Virus record (IMG/VR): IMGVR_UViG_3300033816_001502
Origin: an uncultured virus (IMG/VR IMGVR_UViG_3300033816_001502)
Lineage: Duplodnaviria > Heunggongvirae > Uroviricota > Caudoviricetes
Direction: 5' to 3' (one strand)
DNA: 64,000 bases
Below are positions 6,647 through 53,791 of this stretch, one piece after another. Under the pieces are notes generated by a model. The model had not been told where the DNA came from, did no database searches, and saw nothing but the letters and a program-made list of their open reading frames with translations. The position numbers were made by a program, and so were the translations under genes. Within the stretch, counting starts at the first letter, position 1. Every line of letters begins with the position of its first letter.

Positions 6647-6928
6647 ATGGCAAAGAAAGCAAAGACAAACAAGATCAACGTTGATTCCCCGATTCCTTTT
6701 CCTCAGGTGCACACGTTCGATGAGTTGGCTGTCATCGATGACGATTCATTGAACAACATGCAGCGATCGCTGACGGATTCCATCTCTAGGGTGAATAGTC
6801 ATGGGTTGAATCCTTCAGCATGGGAGGTTGAGATGTGTTATGTACAGCGAGAGCTGCAGATTCGAACAGCTCGTCGTGAGGCCCACGCAAAGTATGTTTC
6901 GACTGTTTCCGTCACGGAGGAGGATTGA
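6647..6928 (+). CDS. hypothetical protein (93 aa, MAKKAKTNK...)
   Basis: ORF whose stop overlaps the sigma start codon. Confidence 0.7.
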   Translation: MAKKAKTNKINVDSPIPFPQVHTFDELAVIDDDSLNNMQRSLTDSISRVNSHGLNPSAWEVEMCYVQRELQIRTARREAHAKYVSTVSVTEED

Positions 6929-7758
6929 ATTTGAGTTCTCAAGGCACAATTTCTCGAGAAAACTCTCGAGAGTCAGCCTTCGGCGGCGATTCAATGAATC
7001 GCTACTTTTCTTCTCTAAAGAACCATCAACAGCTTTCGCATGAGCAGATGATGGAGCTCTTTAAGGTCCTCGAAGCAGGGGGTCTTGACGCGCCTCTCGC
7101 GAAGAAAAAGTTGATCGAGACCAATCTTCGTTTGGTCGTTTATGTGGCGAAGCAGTACAAGAACCACAGCATGCCTCTCGAAGACATCATTCAAGAAGGC
7201 AACATGGGGTTGATGAGAGCGATTGAGAAGTTTGATTGGAAGAAGGGATTTAGGTTCTCAACCTACGCGACCTGGTGGGTTAGGCAAGCGATTGGTCAAC
7301 ACATCCTGAAGCAGAAGCGGGTCATCAGAATGTCCGCGCATGCCGTGAATACTCAAAAGAAGTTGTTGACAGCCGCCGAAGAATACAGGAACGCGATGGG
7401 ATGTGAGCCAACTCCTGAAGAGTTGAAGGAGTTGACAGGCACTTCAGATGCAATCTTCAACGCGATGAGGATCAGTGGTCGATCGATTATTTCGCTTGAT
7501 CAACCTCTGTCCTCAGATCCAGATGCTGACACGATTGAAGATAAGATTGAGGCGGATCCTACGTCAGATCCACTCGAGATTTTTTCTTCCAAGCAAATGT
7601 TAGAGTTGGCTCAACGAGTCATCGTGGGCCTTTCTCCAAAGGAAGCTGCGATTTTGAGGTTACGGTTCGGGCTGGTCGACGACGTGTTGAGCGATGAATC
7701 TTATAAGATCACTCAAGAGCAAGTTGAGAAGATCTCAATGGGAGAAGGTCTCACGTGA
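6925..7758 (+). CDS. sigma70-family RNA polymerase sigma factor lacking the region 4.2 HTH
   Basis: Region 1.2 (DSMNRYF..L), region 2 (NLRLVVYVAKQY, DIIQEGNMGLMRAIEKFD..KGFRFSTYATWWVRQAI), region 3 (EPTPEEL, ISLDQPL) and region 4.1 (LSPKEAAILRLRFGL), then a divergent tail. Confidence 0.92.
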   Translation: MNLSSQGTISRENSRESAFGGDSMNRYFSSLKNHQQLSHEQMMELFKVLEAGGLDAPLAKKKLIETNLRLVVYVAKQYKNHSMPLEDIIQEGNMGLMRAIEKFDWKKGFRFSTYATWWVRQAIGQHILKQKRVIRMSAHAVNTQKKLLTAAEEYRNAMGCEPTPEELKELTGTSDAIFNAMRISGRSIISLDQPLSSDPDADTIEDKIEADPTSDPLEIFSSKQMLELAQRVIVGLSPKEAAILRLRFGLVDDVLSDESYKITQEQVEKISMGEGLT

Positions 7759-8015
7759 CCAGCGAAAGTCTGATTCTTGTCCTATGTTCGATCAATCTGG
7801 TCACTTCTTTTGTTAGTTTGTACATGTTGATCCGTGACAAGAAATCTGATGAAATTGAGGAGGAAGAAGACGTAAAAGAAGATCTGCTGGTCGAACGGAA
7901 CTTAAATTCAAGATTGCGATACTTGCAGACGACCAGATTTGGTCCATCAATGGTACCTCATTCTAGGGGCGAGACATTTCATAGGAAAAATGACAATGAC
8001 AATGAAAAAAGGTAG
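7755..8015 (+). CDS. hypothetical protein with N-terminal transmembrane helix
   Basis: LILVLCSINLVTSFVSLYMLI followed by an acidic stretch; GTGA overlap with the sigma stop. Confidence 0.65.
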   Translation: MTSESLILVLCSINLVTSFVSLYMLIRDKKSDEIEEEEDVKEDLLVERNLNSRLRYLQTTRFGPSMVPHSRGETFHRKNDNDNEKR

Positions 8016-8304
8016 CAAATTTGTTGGTGGGTACGCAACAATTGACGATAATGGTGTTAATTATCGTGATATTGCGGATACAATGACAGAGCTTGGGTAT
8101 AAAATGAACCATTCCTCAGCGAGGAATTACGTACTTCGAGTCATGCGCAAGTTTGTTGATGCAATAGCAGATCAGCATAACATTCACGTCGATTCTGAAT
8201 CAGCTGAGATGATTTCGAAATCTCCGTTGTTCCAAAGTGGAATCTCTGACTTGTTACAAGATCTAGAGTCTCATAGAAAATTGGTGAAAAATGAAAGCAA
8301 CTAA
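7990..8304 (+). CDS. putative HTH DNA-binding protein (sigma region-4-like)
   Basis: VNYRDIADTMTELGYKMNHSSARNYVLRVMRK resembles an HTH; SD AGGA upstream. Confidence 0.55.
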   Translation: MTMTMKKGSKFVGGYATIDDNGVNYRDIADTMTELGYKMNHSSARNYVLRVMRKFVDAIADQHNIHVDSESAEMISKSPLFQSGISDLLQDLESHRKLVKNESN

Positions 8305-45987: not shown

Positions 45988-47379
45988 TTACAATATTTGA
46001 GAAGCCAATGTAGCAAGTTCGCTTCTTTCTCCTTTTAGCATAGTAACGTGTCCAGCTATATCATACTCTTTAAATTTTTCAATTGCGTATGTTAAACCGC
46101 ATGTGTATGCATCAACATGCACATTGTCGATCTGTTCAATATCTCCAGTAAGAACTATCTTTGTTCCGTCTCCTACTCTGGTTATGATCGTCTTTAATTC
46201 ATGCATTGAAAGGTTTTGAGCCTCATCAATGACTATAAAAGAATTAGGTATAGATCTTCCTCTGATGAAGGTAATCGCTTCAATCTCAATTAACCCTTTT
46301 TCTTGCATTAAAGACAAATACGCATTGCTATCGGTCTTGTTCCACCCGCTGTCTGCTTTTGTTCCGCCTCTGACTTTTGCTGCGTTACCTCTCTTACTTC
46401 CCATTAAGAAATTTAAATTGTCTTTGATGGGAGATATCCAAGGTTCCATTTTTTCTTGTAAAGTTCCAGGTAAAAATCCGATGTCTTTTCCTACAGGCTG
46501 AACTGGCTTTGTTACTATTAATTTTGAATACCTGGCTACTTCTGGACTTCCTATTCCTTTTAGCTGTTCTAGTGCTGCGGCTAACGCTAACAGGGTTTTT
46601 CCGCTTCCGCTTAATCCGACCAAGGTTAAAAGCTTAACGTCAGGATCAAAAAGCAAATCTAAAGAAAATGCTTGTTCTTTGTTCCTAGGTTTTAACCCAA
46701 AGACATTTTCAAACTTCTCGATTGGAACAAGCGTTTTAACTCCGTCAACAACTTTTAACTTTGTTATTGCTGATTTTACTGTCTTTTCGTTCTCTACGTG
46801 CTTGATTATGACGACTTGGTTTGGATATCTGACTTGAGGAACATCGATTACTAATTTTTCCTGATGATAAAAATTGTCTATTTCATCTTCAGATAGCTCT
46901 ACAACTTCTACTCCTTTGTAAAAAGTTTTTGGATCATTAGTAATTCTTAATTTCAAATAATCTTCAGATACTATTCCTAAAGCATCACACTTAATTCTTA
47001 CGTTAATATCTTTAGAAACCAGTATGTAATCTCTTGGTAATCCTAACATTAAGCTTATGATTACGTTGTCTGCCTTCGTTGGATCTAGTTCTACTGGTAG
47101 TTTTTCTTTTACAACTGTAGAATCAACTGATACTACTCGTAAAATTCCGCCTTCAGGCAATGCAACTCCGTCTATCAAACTATCATTAGATGATCTCATA
47201 CCATCCAATGTTCTGCTCACGCTTCTGGCGTTGTGTCCTACTTCATCCATTCTGCTTTTATGGTGGTCTAATTCCTCTAAAACCACCATTGGAATAATGA
47301 CATCATTATCTTGAAATGAAAATATAGCATTAGGATCGCTTAAAAGAACGTTCGTGTCAAGGACGTATGTTTTTTTCAT
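45988..47379 (-). CDS. phoH: PIN-PhoH protein (PhoH2/YlaK-like)
   Basis: YVLDTNV..., VLEELD, ADNVI, VSKDIN (PIN); PRNKEQ, GLSGSGKT, FIRGRS, IDEAQN, TRVG..TKIVLTGD. Confidence 0.92.
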   Translation of the reverse strand: MKKTYVLDTNVLLSDPNAIFSFQDNDVIIPMVVLEELDHHKSRMDEVGHNARSVSRTLDGMRSSNDSLIDGVALPEGGILRVVSVDSTVVKEKLPVELDPTKADNVIISLMLGLPRDYILVSKDINVRIKCDALGIVSEDYLKLRITNDPKTFYKGVEVVELSEDEIDNFYHQEKLVIDVPQVRYPNQVVIIKHVENEKTVKSAITKLKVVDGVKTLVPIEKFENVFGLKPRNKEQAFSLDLLFDPDVKLLTLVGLSGSGKTLLALAAALEQLKGIGSPEVARYSKLIVTKPVQPVGKDIGFLPGTLQEKMEPWISPIKDNLNFLMGSKRGNAAKVRGGTKADSGWNKTDSNAYLSLMQEKGLIEIEAITFIRGRSIPNSFIVIDEAQNLSMHELKTIITRVGDGTKIVLTGDIEQIDNVHVDAYTCGLTYAIEKFKEYDIAGHVTMLKGERSELATLASQIL

Positions 47380-47441
47380 GTTGATTTCAATATCTTCTTT
47401 GAACAATGTACCTTTTTTGCCTAAAGTATAAACAAATTCTA

Positions 47442-47720
47442 ATGACAAAAAGCAAAAGTTTACCAATACTAAAACAATCAGCTACTTGCTTTGAGACGCA
47501 TGCTAAATACAACGTCAACTGCAATAAAGACAGCTGCAAAAATTACATGAATGATAAAAATAATCAAAACTGTGTAATCGTTGCAGCTCAAAAAGGACCA
47601 TATACCCTACAAAATATAGGAAAAATATATGGATTGACAAGAATGAGAATTTGTCAAATAGAAAAAAACATCATTCAAAAGTTAAAGTTTCAGCTGTTGT
47701 TTGATAATGATTTCTTTTGA
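47442..47720 (+). CDS. small Cys-rich protein with a sigma70 region-4 HTH
   Basis: YTLQNIGKIYGLTRMRICQIEK matches the region 4.2 consensus TLEEIG..FGVTRERIRQIE; four N-terminal Cys; promoter TTGAAC-N17-TAAAGT at 47399-47427. Confidence 0.8.
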   Translation: MTKSKSLPILKQSATCFETHAKYNVNCNKDSCKNYMNDKNNQNCVIVAAQKGPYTLQNIGKIYGLTRMRICQIEKNIIQKLKFQLLFDNDFF

Positions 47721-48109
47721 AATAATTGCTTTTTCTTTTGCTTTTCTGACTGTTCATCAACACTTTTATCAGTTGAAAAATTAACTTCCACTTTTTCTTC
47801 AAGAATTGCGGATTCAGCGTCAGCTTCTTTTTCTTTTAAGGAAGCATTAGTAGTAATGGTAGCTTTTTCGTTTTCAACTCTAGGACTAACGTCCACAATT
47901 TCGGTAAGCTTTTCTTGCTTTAAAGTTTCTACCTTAGTGGATTCTTCTTGCGCCGGTACAAAAACGAAACCTGGTTTAAGATTAAGATCTTTCTTCTTTT
48001 TTGAAGAAACATTCTTAAGCTTTCCATCTTTAGACAAAGATCTATGGGATTTTTTTGGATCTAATCCCAAGTTTAAGATATCTGCTAGGACTGCTCTAGG
48101 TGCTGGCAT
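47690..48109 (-). CDS. hypothetical Lys/Glu-rich protein
   Basis: SD GAGG; charged low-complexity ORF. Confidence 0.6.
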   Translation of the reverse strand: MPAPRAVLADILNLGLDPKKSHRSLSKDGKLKNVSSKKKKDLNLKPGFVFVPAQEESTKVETLKQEKLTEIVDVSPRVENEKATITTNASLKEKEADAESAILEEKVEVNFSTDKSVDEQSEKQKKKQLFQKKSLSNNS

Positions 48110-48147
48110 TTTTTCCTCTTATTCAATTTAAATTTGAATATTAATTC

Positions 48148-48171
48148 AAACGGGTGCTGAAGCACCCGTTT
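48148..48171 (-). terminator. terminator-like hairpin after the Hc1-like gene
   Basis: AAACGGGTGCT-GA-AGCACCCGTTT. Confidence 0.65.
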
Positions 48172-48180
48172 AATAATTAT

Positions 48181-48384
48181 TCACTTTGAATCTTTTGAAC
48201 TTTTTTCAAAAGCAATCGTTGTTTTCACCATGTCGGATGCTTTTGTTTTTAATTCTCTCAAACCTTTTCTGACTCTGACGCCAGCCGCAGCAACTCCTCT
48301 AGCTGATTTTGCAACGTCATGTTCAAGAGATTCAACTAAAGATTTAACTTCATTCCATTTTGCTAAAACTTCATTATCGGACAT
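48181..48384 (-). CDS. histone H1-like (Hc1-family) DNA-binding protein
   Basis: DVAKSARGVAAAGVRVRKGLRELK matches the Hc1-type G.KAAG.R.RK motif; SD GGAGG. Confidence 0.7.
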   Translation of the reverse strand: MSDNEVLAKWNEVKSLVESLEHDVAKSARGVAAAGVRVRKGLRELKTKASDMVKTTIAFEKSSKDSK

Positions 48385-50161: not shown

Positions 50162-50779
50162 TTATGCACCAATAATTTTATCCACGATGCCTAATTTGAT
50201 TGCTTCTTCAGGAGTCACATAAAAATCATGTCCAGATTTCATGATTTTTTCGACTTGCTCTTTTGTCATGTTGGATTCTTTTTGAAGAGATGAAACCATC
50301 AATTCTTGTAGCCTTTTGAATTCGTTGGTTTCACTCATGGATTCAAAAACGTTTCCGTAAAAACCTCCTGATATAGGATGCATCATAAGTCTTGCTGATG
50401 ATCCAATTAAGCGTTTGCCTTTCACGCCAGAAGCTAGCAGTAGCACACCTGCTGACATTACTTTACCCAACGCTATTGTATGGACAGGACATGGCAAAAA
50501 TCTGATGGTATCATAAAGCGAAAACATTTCATCTACAGACCCTCCATAAGTAGAAACCACTAGATGAATTGGTTTGTGGTTTTGATTTGCTAAATACAAG
50601 AGCTGATAGATTACTGCGGAAATTGATTGTTCGCTGACCCCTCCGTATAATACTACGATTCTAGAATCTTCTCCATGTTTTGGATGAGGGAGCAAAGCTG
50701 CTAACTCAGCTTCATCATGATCGCCGGTTTTATTTTTTGTTGTAAACGGAGTTTTTACGTTAATTGATCTTCCCATCAT
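50162..50779 (-). CDS. clpP: ClpP-family serine protease
   Basis: VSTYGGSV, TIALGKVMSAG (catalytic Ser), KGKR, LMMHP (His), EEAIKLGIVDKI. Confidence 0.9.
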   Translation of the reverse strand: MMGRSINVKTPFTTKNKTGDHDEAELAALLPHPKHGEDSRIVVLYGGVSEQSISAVIYQLLYLANQNHKPIHLVVSTYGGSVDEMFSLYDTIRFLPCPVHTIALGKVMSAGVLLLASGVKGKRLIGSSARLMMHPISGGFYGNVFESMSETNEFKRLQELMVSSLQKESNMTKEQVEKIMKSGHDFYVTPEEAIKLGIVDKIIGA

Positions 50780-50999
50780 CGCTCCTTGAGACAAAAATAT
50801 CGTCTCCTGCAATTTCTTTAATCACTTCTGTTAGGTCTTTTACATATTCTATATTCTCTAATTCAAGAGAAAGTAAATAAATAAGGAACATTTGTTGCCT
50901 TTGCGTAAGACCTACATTCAAAATTTCTTTTACGATCTTTCGACATTCTTCATTTTCTTCTGCTAATTTTTCAGAAGAAAGCTTACCAAAAGTTTGCAT
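50760..50999 (-). CDS. hypothetical protein
   Basis: Operonic ORF overlapping clpP. Confidence 0.65.
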   Translation of the reverse strand: MQTFGKLSSEKLAEENEECRKIVKEILNVGLTQRQQMFLIYLLSLELENIEYVKDLTEVIKEIAGDDIFVSRSDDGKIN

Positions 51000-51786: not shown

Positions 51787-52611
51787 ATGAGTGAAGTAAA
51801 CAAAGTTAATGAAGATATCGTAGCGTTAAAAATCGCTTTATTAGAATCTAAGGTTCTAAAAGAGATATCTGAGAAGCAGCAAGAAGAATTGGAAAATTTT
51901 GTTGAAAAATCACAAAAAGCAGTAGAGTTGTTTTTAGACGCAATTACTAGCGAGAACATAAGTTCTACTGCTATTAAGGGATTTTTAGAAAAAGCAGAAG
52001 AAAAACAACGAGAATATCTAGAAAAGATTCAATCTGGTTCTTTAAAACCTAAAGACGAACAAAAAGCAATAGAGAACATAAAAAAAATAAATGGAGCTTT
52101 TGCAGGATTTGCCGTGGCAATGAAAAATATTCCAAAAGCAGGAATAGCAATAAAAGACTTCAAGAAAATATTAAAAAAAGAATTAGAAGACAGTAGAAAT
52201 GATAATAGAACTTCTAAAAAAATGTCAGAGCTATTTCCAAATGATTATCAGAAATTTTCAGCAGCTTTAAGTTCTTCTTTTAAAACTAAGATTAGCGTTT
52301 ATGATCCTGTAAAATTGGGAATTCCTTGGGATACAAATGCTGTAGTTTCTGAATTCGTGAACATGCCTGTAAAAGCTTTAAATAGATTTACTGGTAAAGT
52401 TCAAGACAGCGAACCGCCTCCAACTCCTCCTGCACCGACACCACCAGGGTCTCCACCGACACCTGCCGCACCTGATGTGAAAATTAAAGATATTTTCAAA
52501 GGTGCAAATGAACAAGACATTAGAAAGTTTAATGAAAAGTTTAAAGAAAAATTTGGATTTGAACTTTCTGATAAAGATGACCTAGCTGCAATACTTGCTA
52601 GTATGACATAA
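51787..52611 (+). CDS. hypothetical Lys-rich protein with a Pro-rich linker
   Basis: Clean 274-aa ORF; N-terminal LLE/LKE sites; PPPTPPAPTPPGSPPTP. Confidence 0.7.
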   Translation: MSEVNKVNEDIVALKIALLESKVLKEISEKQQEELENFVEKSQKAVELFLDAITSENISSTAIKGFLEKAEEKQREYLEKIQSGSLKPKDEQKAIENIKKINGAFAGFAVAMKNIPKAGIAIKDFKKILKKELEDSRNDNRTSKKMSELFPNDYQKFSAALSSSFKTKISVYDPVKLGIPWDTNAVVSEFVNMPVKALNRFTGKVQDSEPPPTPPAPTPPGSPPTPAAPDVKIKDIFKGANEQDIRKFNEKFKEKFGFELSDKDDLAAILASMT

Positions 52612-53791
52612 TGACAGAGTTATGTATTACTGCACCTAATGAATTTAATTTTTCAAAAAACAATTTAGAATATAAGTTAGAAGAGACATAAGATCCGTAA
52701 AGCTTAGAATCATTTATCACTCCAAATTCTATCATAGATTTTATTGATCTAAGACAATAATCAACAGATTGTCTTTTTACGACAAAATCGCTGGTATCTG
52801 GAAGTCTAATAATGACATTATTTGCTGACAAAGATCTTATTCTATCTTCATAGATTTCTTCTACATTTTTTGATTCTTCTCTTTTAGATAATAGAAATTT
52901 AATATGAGAATTGACATCAGATTTTGATGATTGATTTTTTATGCAAATTGAATTAACGTAAATAGAGATTTCATCTACTTTTCTTGCATCATCTATAGAA
53001 ATATTAGAAATCAGTTGGCCTAAATTGCTAGAAAACAAAGATGCAGAACAAGCTATTGAGATATCATTAAGTTTGTTTATTCCTTCCAGATTAAACTCAA
53101 CTACAATAGGATAAACTTCAATAGCTCCTCTAATTCTATTGACTTTCAGTGTATTTAAAACTTCGTCATGAAGTCCTCTAGCTATTAGAATTACAGGGTG
53201 TTTTGTTGAACTTGCTCCTTCAAGCAATAAATTAATCTCAGAAACAGATTCAACAAATCCATCAATAACGATGACTCTAGGATTTACTATTTTTATTGGT
53301 TTTTCTTCAAAAGTTTTTACTTTAAAGGTAAAACCATCAATAGCTTCAATTGAAGTAAAGTTATTGCTAGACTTTTCTACAGATATTCTGCCACCAAACC
53401 CAGCTAAAAGCACAGCGTCAAATAATAAGTTGCTTAACGTGTTATCGTCTTTTGTTTGAGAAAAAATGATTTTTTTTAGATCATTCAAAGTAGCCTTGTT
53501 TGAAGATCTGGTTTTATCATCAAGATTAGAGTTTAATATCCTGTGTAACGTAAAGTCAAACCCACCAGGAGATATTTTTTCTGATAAAATACAATGTTCT
53601 ATAATCAACCTATGAATAGCTAATTTCAGTTGATTAGAATATTTTAAATTAAAAATTCCTTGAAATGAAGTTTTTAACAAAACTTGATCTTTTTCAAGGA
53701 ATAATACTTTTTCTGTATTTAAAAAATTTCTTAAATCATCGCATACTTCTTTAAATGATTCAAGTATTTCTTTTTTTAGAAAAATTGTCAC
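52598..53791 (-). CDS. degenerate GroEL/Cpn60-like chaperonin
   Basis: AG.GGRISVE.S, IDGF, NPRVIVIDG.VES, PVILIARG, EVLNTLKVN..RG, LNDISI, EDRIRSL; the GDGTTT ATP motif is not seen. Confidence 0.7.
   Translation of the reverse strand: MTIFLKKEILESFKEVCDDLRNFLNTEKVLFLEKDQVLLKTSFQGIFNLKYSNQLKLAIHRLIIEHCILSEKISPGGFDFTLHRILNSNLDDKTRSSNKATLNDLKKIIFSQTKDDNTLSNLLFDAVLLAGFGGRISVEKSSNNFTSIEAIDGFTFKVKTFEEKPIKIVNPRVIVIDGFVESVSEINLLLEGASSTKHPVILIARGLHDEVLNTLKVNRIRGAIEVYPIVVEFNLEGINKLNDISIACSASLFSSNLGQLISNISIDDARKVDEISIYVNSICIKNQSSKSDVNSHIKFLLSKREESKNVEEIYEDRIRSLSANNVIIRLPDTSDFVVKRQSVDYCLRSIKSMIEFGVINDSKLYGSYVSSNLYSKLFFEKLNSLGAVIHNSVIMSY

Follow-up and report, generated by a model that had tools for sequence, protein, structure and literature searches.

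The gene at the centre of this analysis occupies positions 47442..47720 on the + strand of the window, by which we mean the whole 64,000-nucleotide stretch of DNA analysed (bases 1-64000 of a 73,370-base virus record). It encodes an AsgB-like protein of 92 aa in which four cysteines precede a helix-turn-helix (HTH) of the sigma region 4.2 type; translation, Pfam matches, homologues and their conservation all agree with the initial annotation on this architecture. A PIN-PhoH gene (45988..47379, − strand) is its conserved divergent neighbour in 73/80 loci and a gene for an Hc1-like small basic protein (48181..48384, − strand) its conserved convergent neighbour in 77/80, and the gene order agrees with the earlier description, in which the gene points away from PIN-PhoH and is the only + strand gene of its block. 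A conserved block of host-like genes adjoins the small gene, comprising the Hc1-like histone, ClpP and a GroEL-like fragment (48181-48384, 50162-50812 and 52598-53791); some relatives have beside it what we take to be a PrkA-like gene. A strong hairpin at 48146-48173 of the window, called as a terminator on both strands, lies between the Hc1-like gene and an ORF at 48109. Genes for a T4-like capsid, portal, terminase and prohead protease are present in the window's record, and complete relatives reach 369 kb.

Within the small protein, Pfam Sigma70_r4 matches residues 45-82 (E 1.6e-9), and the HTH lies at codons 55-82 (47604..47687, + strand), with the recognition helix TRMRICQIEK. Ahead of it, codons 16-44 (47487..47573, + strand) form a C-x10-C-x4-C-x11-C module, a zinc site predicted from conservation. 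A protein search returned 244 candidates of 50-161 aa, all 244 of them relatives, and a profile search gave 108 clusters at E <=1e-10. Across 132 diverse relatives, Cys16, Cys27, Cys32 and Cys44 are kept in 129, 131, 130 and 131, respectively. Judged by this near-invariance, the four cysteines are likely a zinc site, and a structural site is a simpler inference than the metal or redox regulation that had been suggested. The histidine listed with the cysteines in the initial annotation fares less well, since position 20 is His in just 53/132 relatives and Cys in 25/132. An AlphaFold model built from the 132 sequences has a mean pLDDT of 87.7 and a pTM of 0.65, with pLDDT ~95 over residues 21-80, a formed HTH and helices at 16-23, 45-51, 56-63 and 67-88. 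A first model from 73 close sequences (pTM 0.37) left the HTH unformed, gave only coiled-coil fold matches and was discarded. Fold searches with the better model gave no match for the Cys module (best Z 2.9, with matches confined to the HTH), which does not show that the module is a new fold.

The HTH is most readily compared with region 4.2 of the group 1 sigmas RpoD/SigA. The sequence matches SigA region 4 at E 2.9e-7, and the model and SigA region 4.2 align structurally to 0.3-0.9 A for about 30-33 residues, although the Foldseek E-value is weak (>0.4). In contrast to RpoD/SigA, the small protein has no regions 1-4.1, and its recognition helix differs: TRMRICQ is found in 79/80 small-gene loci, whereas RpoD (L160) reads TRERIRQ. 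In E. coli numbering, which we take to apply here, R584 is kept while E585 is replaced by Met and R588 by Cys. The available part of PMC2613000 has R584 governing position -31 and E585 and R588 governing -33. The helix is thus not simply consensus, because two of the three base-reading residues have changed relative to RpoD; the earlier remark that the protein lies close to the region 4.2 consensus is corrected on this point.

The initial annotation had further proposed that the small protein supplies the element missing from the sigma factor at 6925..7758 (+ strand). This RpoD-like sigma has regions 2, 3 and 4.1 followed by a conserved, clade-specific tail, and lacks the region 4.2 recognition helix. 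Of the 80 best viral sigma loci, 79 end in this way, after region 4.1 and the clade-specific tail, and the remaining one is a whole RpoD; the truncation is natural and clade-wide. Frameshifting or recoding of the sigma was considered and rejected, as region 4.2 is not recovered in any frame beyond 7758 and the end of the gene is conserved. Aligned to the RpoD C-terminal model TIGR02393, the sigma covers positions 1-195 and the small protein 193-226, so that the two are complementary on paper. This complementary break is one of the arguments for an alternative in which the small protein is the second subunit of the RpoD-like sigma and reads a -35 box, TG[ACT]A[AC]A, in trans; we think this unlikely, though it deserves to be taken seriously. 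Against it, the sigma tail stands in the sequence where the first HTH helix would be, and a different protein keeps closer company with the sigma. Just downstream, at 7990..8304 (+ strand), lies a gene for a highly conserved helical protein of ~100 aa (NYREIA...M...G..MNHSSARNY), which is found beside the shortened sigma in 79/79 loci and so tracks it better than the small gene does; the latter is at least 40 kb from the sigma in 8/8 records measured. A chimera between the sigma and the small gene is unlikely, because the near-identical record G001 holds both. The 7990-8304 protein appears HTH-like by eye; it has no convincing family, structure or region-4 profile match, and searches of three sister genomes did not find it. 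It is the best candidate for the shortened sigma's partner.

A predicted promoter faces the small gene at 47399..47427 (+ strand) and reads (T)TGAACA-N16-TAAAGT, with TTGAAC at 47399-47404 and TAAAGT at 47422-47427. It is present where the initial annotation had put a TTGAAC-N17-TAAAGT promoter belonging to this gene, is missing from the list given by a generic sigma-70 scan of the window, and proves to be a member of a conserved phage class. This class faces the small gene in 30/56 distinct intergenic stretches (shuffle mean 3.1) and PhoH in three, and it occurs within 560 bases upstream of the shortened sigma in 44/63 (shuffle mean 7.7). By eye, the small gene's -10 box overlaps in many relatives a TATAAT-like box on the reverse strand that could serve PhoH (47399-47433). 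Genome-wide counts were made with crudely called genes and with shuffles that keep only base composition; on that footing TG[ACT]A[AC]-N17/18-TAnnnT lies upstream of 34/239 genes in G050 (shuffle mean 1.9), 29/113 in G002 (4.2), 20/147 in G067 (5.1), 36/158 in G066 (4.1) and 15/219 in G013 (1.5), with a sharp spacing peak at 17-18, while the host-type TTGAC is counted 0, 0, 3, 0 and 1 times in the same five genomes. In the sister genomes G151, G154 and G165 the class is at chance (5/74, 1/80 and 4/78) and TTGAC is found in 3/74, 12/80 and 14/78 (shuffles about 0.5), a clear use in two of the three; the pattern was derived from the same data as it was counted in, and the two clades amount to one evolutionary contrast. 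What is new here is that five genomes with the shortened sigma use the TG[ACT]A[AC]-N17/18-TAnnnT class, which none of the three sister genomes uses. This non-canonical -35 class, which includes the GTGCAA and TTGAAC variants of the initial annotation, is confined to genomes with the shortened sigma; judged from these sequences, the whole clade has exchanged TTGAC for TG[ACT]A[AC] as its -35 box, and the exchange accompanies the operon of the shortened sigma. Within the window, promoters of the class stand before UvdE, ligase, SbcCD, primase, helicase, a GroEL-like gene and the small gene, and before none of the capsid, portal, terminase and protease genes checked; this distribution suggests a middle-phase class.

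As the -35 box is strong but altered and the sigma has no -35 helix, some other element must read the box, and the candidates are the small protein, the protein beside the sigma and the sigma's own tail. The box bears on the two-subunit alternative in opposite ways. Written as TGHAMA with a 16/17-bp spacing, its differences from TTGACA fall at -34 and -33, and G at -33 is avoided (TGGAM 1.5 on-spacing versus 1.2 off); this departure fits the residues changed in the TRMRICQ helix, given that E585 and R588 govern -33. The register is ambiguous, however: if the box is read one base upstream, G-33 is kept and C-31 is lost, the opposite of what the helix would lead one to expect. Moreover, the sister proteins also lack the E585 and R588 residues, and yet two of the three sisters clearly use TTGAC.

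Co-occurrence is similarly divided. All four large relatives at least 90% complete (G013, G015, G050 and G066) have both the small gene and the shortened sigma, and no near-complete record of the large clade breaks the association of the TRMRICQ helix with the shortened sigma and the TGHAM promoter class. Both genes are also present on the MAG contig G088:C5 (306 kb), which looks like a mis-binned near-complete phage. Among the small-gene contigs of at least 40 kb (49 of 80), nine have a sigma match (one partial; near-complete, 2/2), and 10 of 41 sigma contigs have the small gene (near-complete, 3/3). In G067 (87% complete) the sigma occurs together with the promoter class, with no match for the small gene, PhoH or the gp55-like gene, which fits a missing block. 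The small-protein family exists without the shortened sigma, however. It is present in 7/8 sister phages of ~185 kb and at least 90% completeness, three of which (G151, G154 and G165) were picked for the small gene and five by their gp55-like sigma, 4/5 of the latter carrying it; none of the eight has the shortened sigma. The recognition helix is retained in the other sigmas of G179, G180 and G166, and some sister phages (L488, L606 and L607) encode a complete RpoH/RpoD-like sigma whose helix is SKQR[VI][GA]Q. The small protein of the sister phages itself has the helix S[FL]VR[VI][CK]Q in seven loci, with three further loci unmatched by the pattern; this difference counts against a purely stand-alone reading, as the large-clade protein may have been recruited to the sigma.

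Sigma factors of two subunits are already described: the accessible text of bioRxiv 10.64898/2026.10.01.756105 names SigO-RsoA, Sig7-Sig8, SPO1 gp33-gp34 and T4 gp55-gp33, and in the first three (of B. subtilis, Tn916 and SPO1), as far as it goes, has the functions of regions 2 and 4 on separate proteins. The phage pair differs from these in that its sigma keeps regions 2, 3 and 4.1, in that the small gene is at least 40 kb away, and in that the small protein bears a Cys module and is also found where the sigma is missing.

A distant match, P0381, led to a chromosomal family of Myxococcota, which is matched at E <=1e-8 in 39/61 genomes; a protein with four cysteines and TRER[IV]RQ is encoded at 21/21 Myxococcota loci read, and 118/120 homologues among the matches listed fit that pattern. 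The published asgB reverse primer (PMC3986340, supplement 2) translates to ETGSIKL, a motif in this family's loop that is exact in 15/120 of the listed homologues and present in variant form in 91/120; from this correspondence we take the Myxococcota family to be AsgB. HHalign of the phage and AsgB-type profiles gives a probability of 98.1 (E 8.7e-14, 66 columns); for the N-terminal Cys parts alone, with the HTH removed, it falls short of significance (probability 2.5, E 0.018). AsgB (MXAN_2913 of Myxococcus xanthus) and its orthologues share with the phage protein a stand-alone architecture of four cysteines followed by a region 4.2 HTH, as well as the C-x4-C and C-x10-TL spacings, here defined from the Myxococcota family, and intermediates between the two forms exist (e.g., P0381). 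The phage protein differs in its size (92 aa versus about 160), in its Cys1-Cys2 gap (10 residues versus 6), in its Cys3-Cys4 gap (11 residues versus 30) and in its helix, TRMRICQ against the canonical TRER[IV]RQ. Because it has neither the extended N-terminus nor the 19-residue insert, with an xTxSIK motif, in the loop, we regard it as a relative of AsgB and not as a member of the family. The portions available to us of PMC3986340, where AsgB is said to bind DNA and to comprise 163 aa with a C-terminus resembling region 4, and of bioRxiv 10.64898/2026.08.28.747804, where its action is given only as "likely a transcription factor", mention neither cysteines nor phage relatives.

The reading we prefer is that the small protein is a free-standing, zinc-stabilised AsgB-like regulator and not a fragment that completes sigma region 4, a preference that is nonetheless tentative and somewhat more liable to be wrong than right. 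A free-standing promoter regulator is likely because relatives occur in phages and myxobacteria without the shortened sigma. These same relatives, together with the better-tracking neighbour of the sigma, weaken the earlier proposal of a missing sigma element; what stands of it is the sigma truncation with its complementary break, the co-occurrence in the large clade and the -35 class. The outcome named in advance as contrary to that proposal, a family without co-occurring truncated sigmas that behaves as an ordinary operator-binding repressor, was found in its first half; a search for an operator or binding site of the small protein's own found none. As a free-standing regulator, the protein would bind -35-like promoter boxes on its own, and in the model the four-Cys module and helix 45-51 would replace region 4.1, giving the HTH its own scaffold. 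The shortened sigma might transcribe the small gene in the middle phase together with the replication genes, after which the product could re-tune promoter use, either by shutting off earlier promoters or by handing over to a gp55-like late sigma. We think a combined history unlikely, in which an AsgB-like regulator with a zinc module and region 4.2 was acquired by the large phages, its helix was changed to TRMRICQ, and the protein, from a gene of its own, now reads the -35 box for a sigma cut inside region 4.

The gp55-like sigma raises another alternative, namely that the small protein replaces T4 gp33 as a sigma-4 mimic that co-activates this late sigma. The T4 late system of gp55 and gp33, itself counted as a two-subunit sigma in the accessible text of bioRxiv 10.64898/2026.10.01.756105, shares with these phages a T4-like capsid, portal and terminase, a gp55-like sigma and a small HTH protein encoded elsewhere. 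The gp55-like sigma (phrog_234, E about 2.5e-6) accompanies the small gene in 11/12 near-complete genomes from both clades, although this would be expected of any two core genes, and G067 is without both. It is absent from the 73-kb record; G002, in which the small protein and the sigma share 97-98% identity with those of the window, does have it. A search without a positive control did not find gp33 (PF16805) in 5/5 complete genomes; the small protein itself has no match to PF16805, and its HTH, unlike gp33, is a true RpoD 4.2 derivative. In sigma-70, region 4.1 and the C-terminal tail form the flap-tip pocket, and the small protein has neither region 4.1 nor a conserved C-terminal tail. The gp55-like sigma, moreover, is itself prolonged by a long C-terminal extension, and efforts to define a late promoter motif yielded none. 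We hold a gp33 substitute to be distinctly unlikely. In the two loci read (L385:1138-1866 and L205:17815-18597, both − strand) the gp55-like sigma is about 245 aa long, and its conserved C-terminal extension is HTH-like by eye, with no profile match.

The loss of two base-reading residues from a helix that is otherwise strictly conserved could also point to a decoy or appropriator, which would not read DNA and would instead vie with region 4 of the host sigma for access to the flap or to host activators; the available text of PMC7824862 offers AsiA in group 2 jumbo phages as a precedent. This is very improbable, as the AsgB-type relatives keep the full TRER[IV]RQ helix in 118/120 of those listed, AsgB is described as DNA-binding in the accessible part of PMC3986340, and no sequence likeness to an anti-sigma was seen.

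Our literature search, outside which lay subscription papers and bioRxiv supplements, found no paper on this phage family. The part of PMC7824862 available reports that group 2 jumbo phages have gp33 and also "minimal" single-HTH sigmas, and the latter may bear on novelty. A widespread group of uncultured T4-like phages carries a sigma without a -35 helix, and a predicted promoter set is now available for testing the candidate -35 readers. If the combined history were true, it would mean a two- or three-part sigma with a new code, TGHAMA-N16/17-TAnnnT, and a -35 specificity that can be switched in trans; if the protein is merely a stand-alone regulator, it is a modest extension of a known kind. 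The link to AsgB also offers a small and experimentally accessible model of a regulator of myxobacterial development, the mechanism of which is left open in the literature, so far as the available texts go.

The small protein has no match among cultured phages, and its matches in MAGs sit in phage-type gene order. The MAG contigs L254, L255, L256 and L257 carry this phage block and are filed under different bacterial names. Compact relatives (P0328, P0343, P0359, P0383 and P0387) keep the canonical TRER[IV]RQ helix and an RpoD C-terminal tail; the genomic contexts of the phage-like P0359 and P0328 were looked for and not found. GC content drops along the window, from about 61% over its first 4 kb to 30-35% once past 36 kb.
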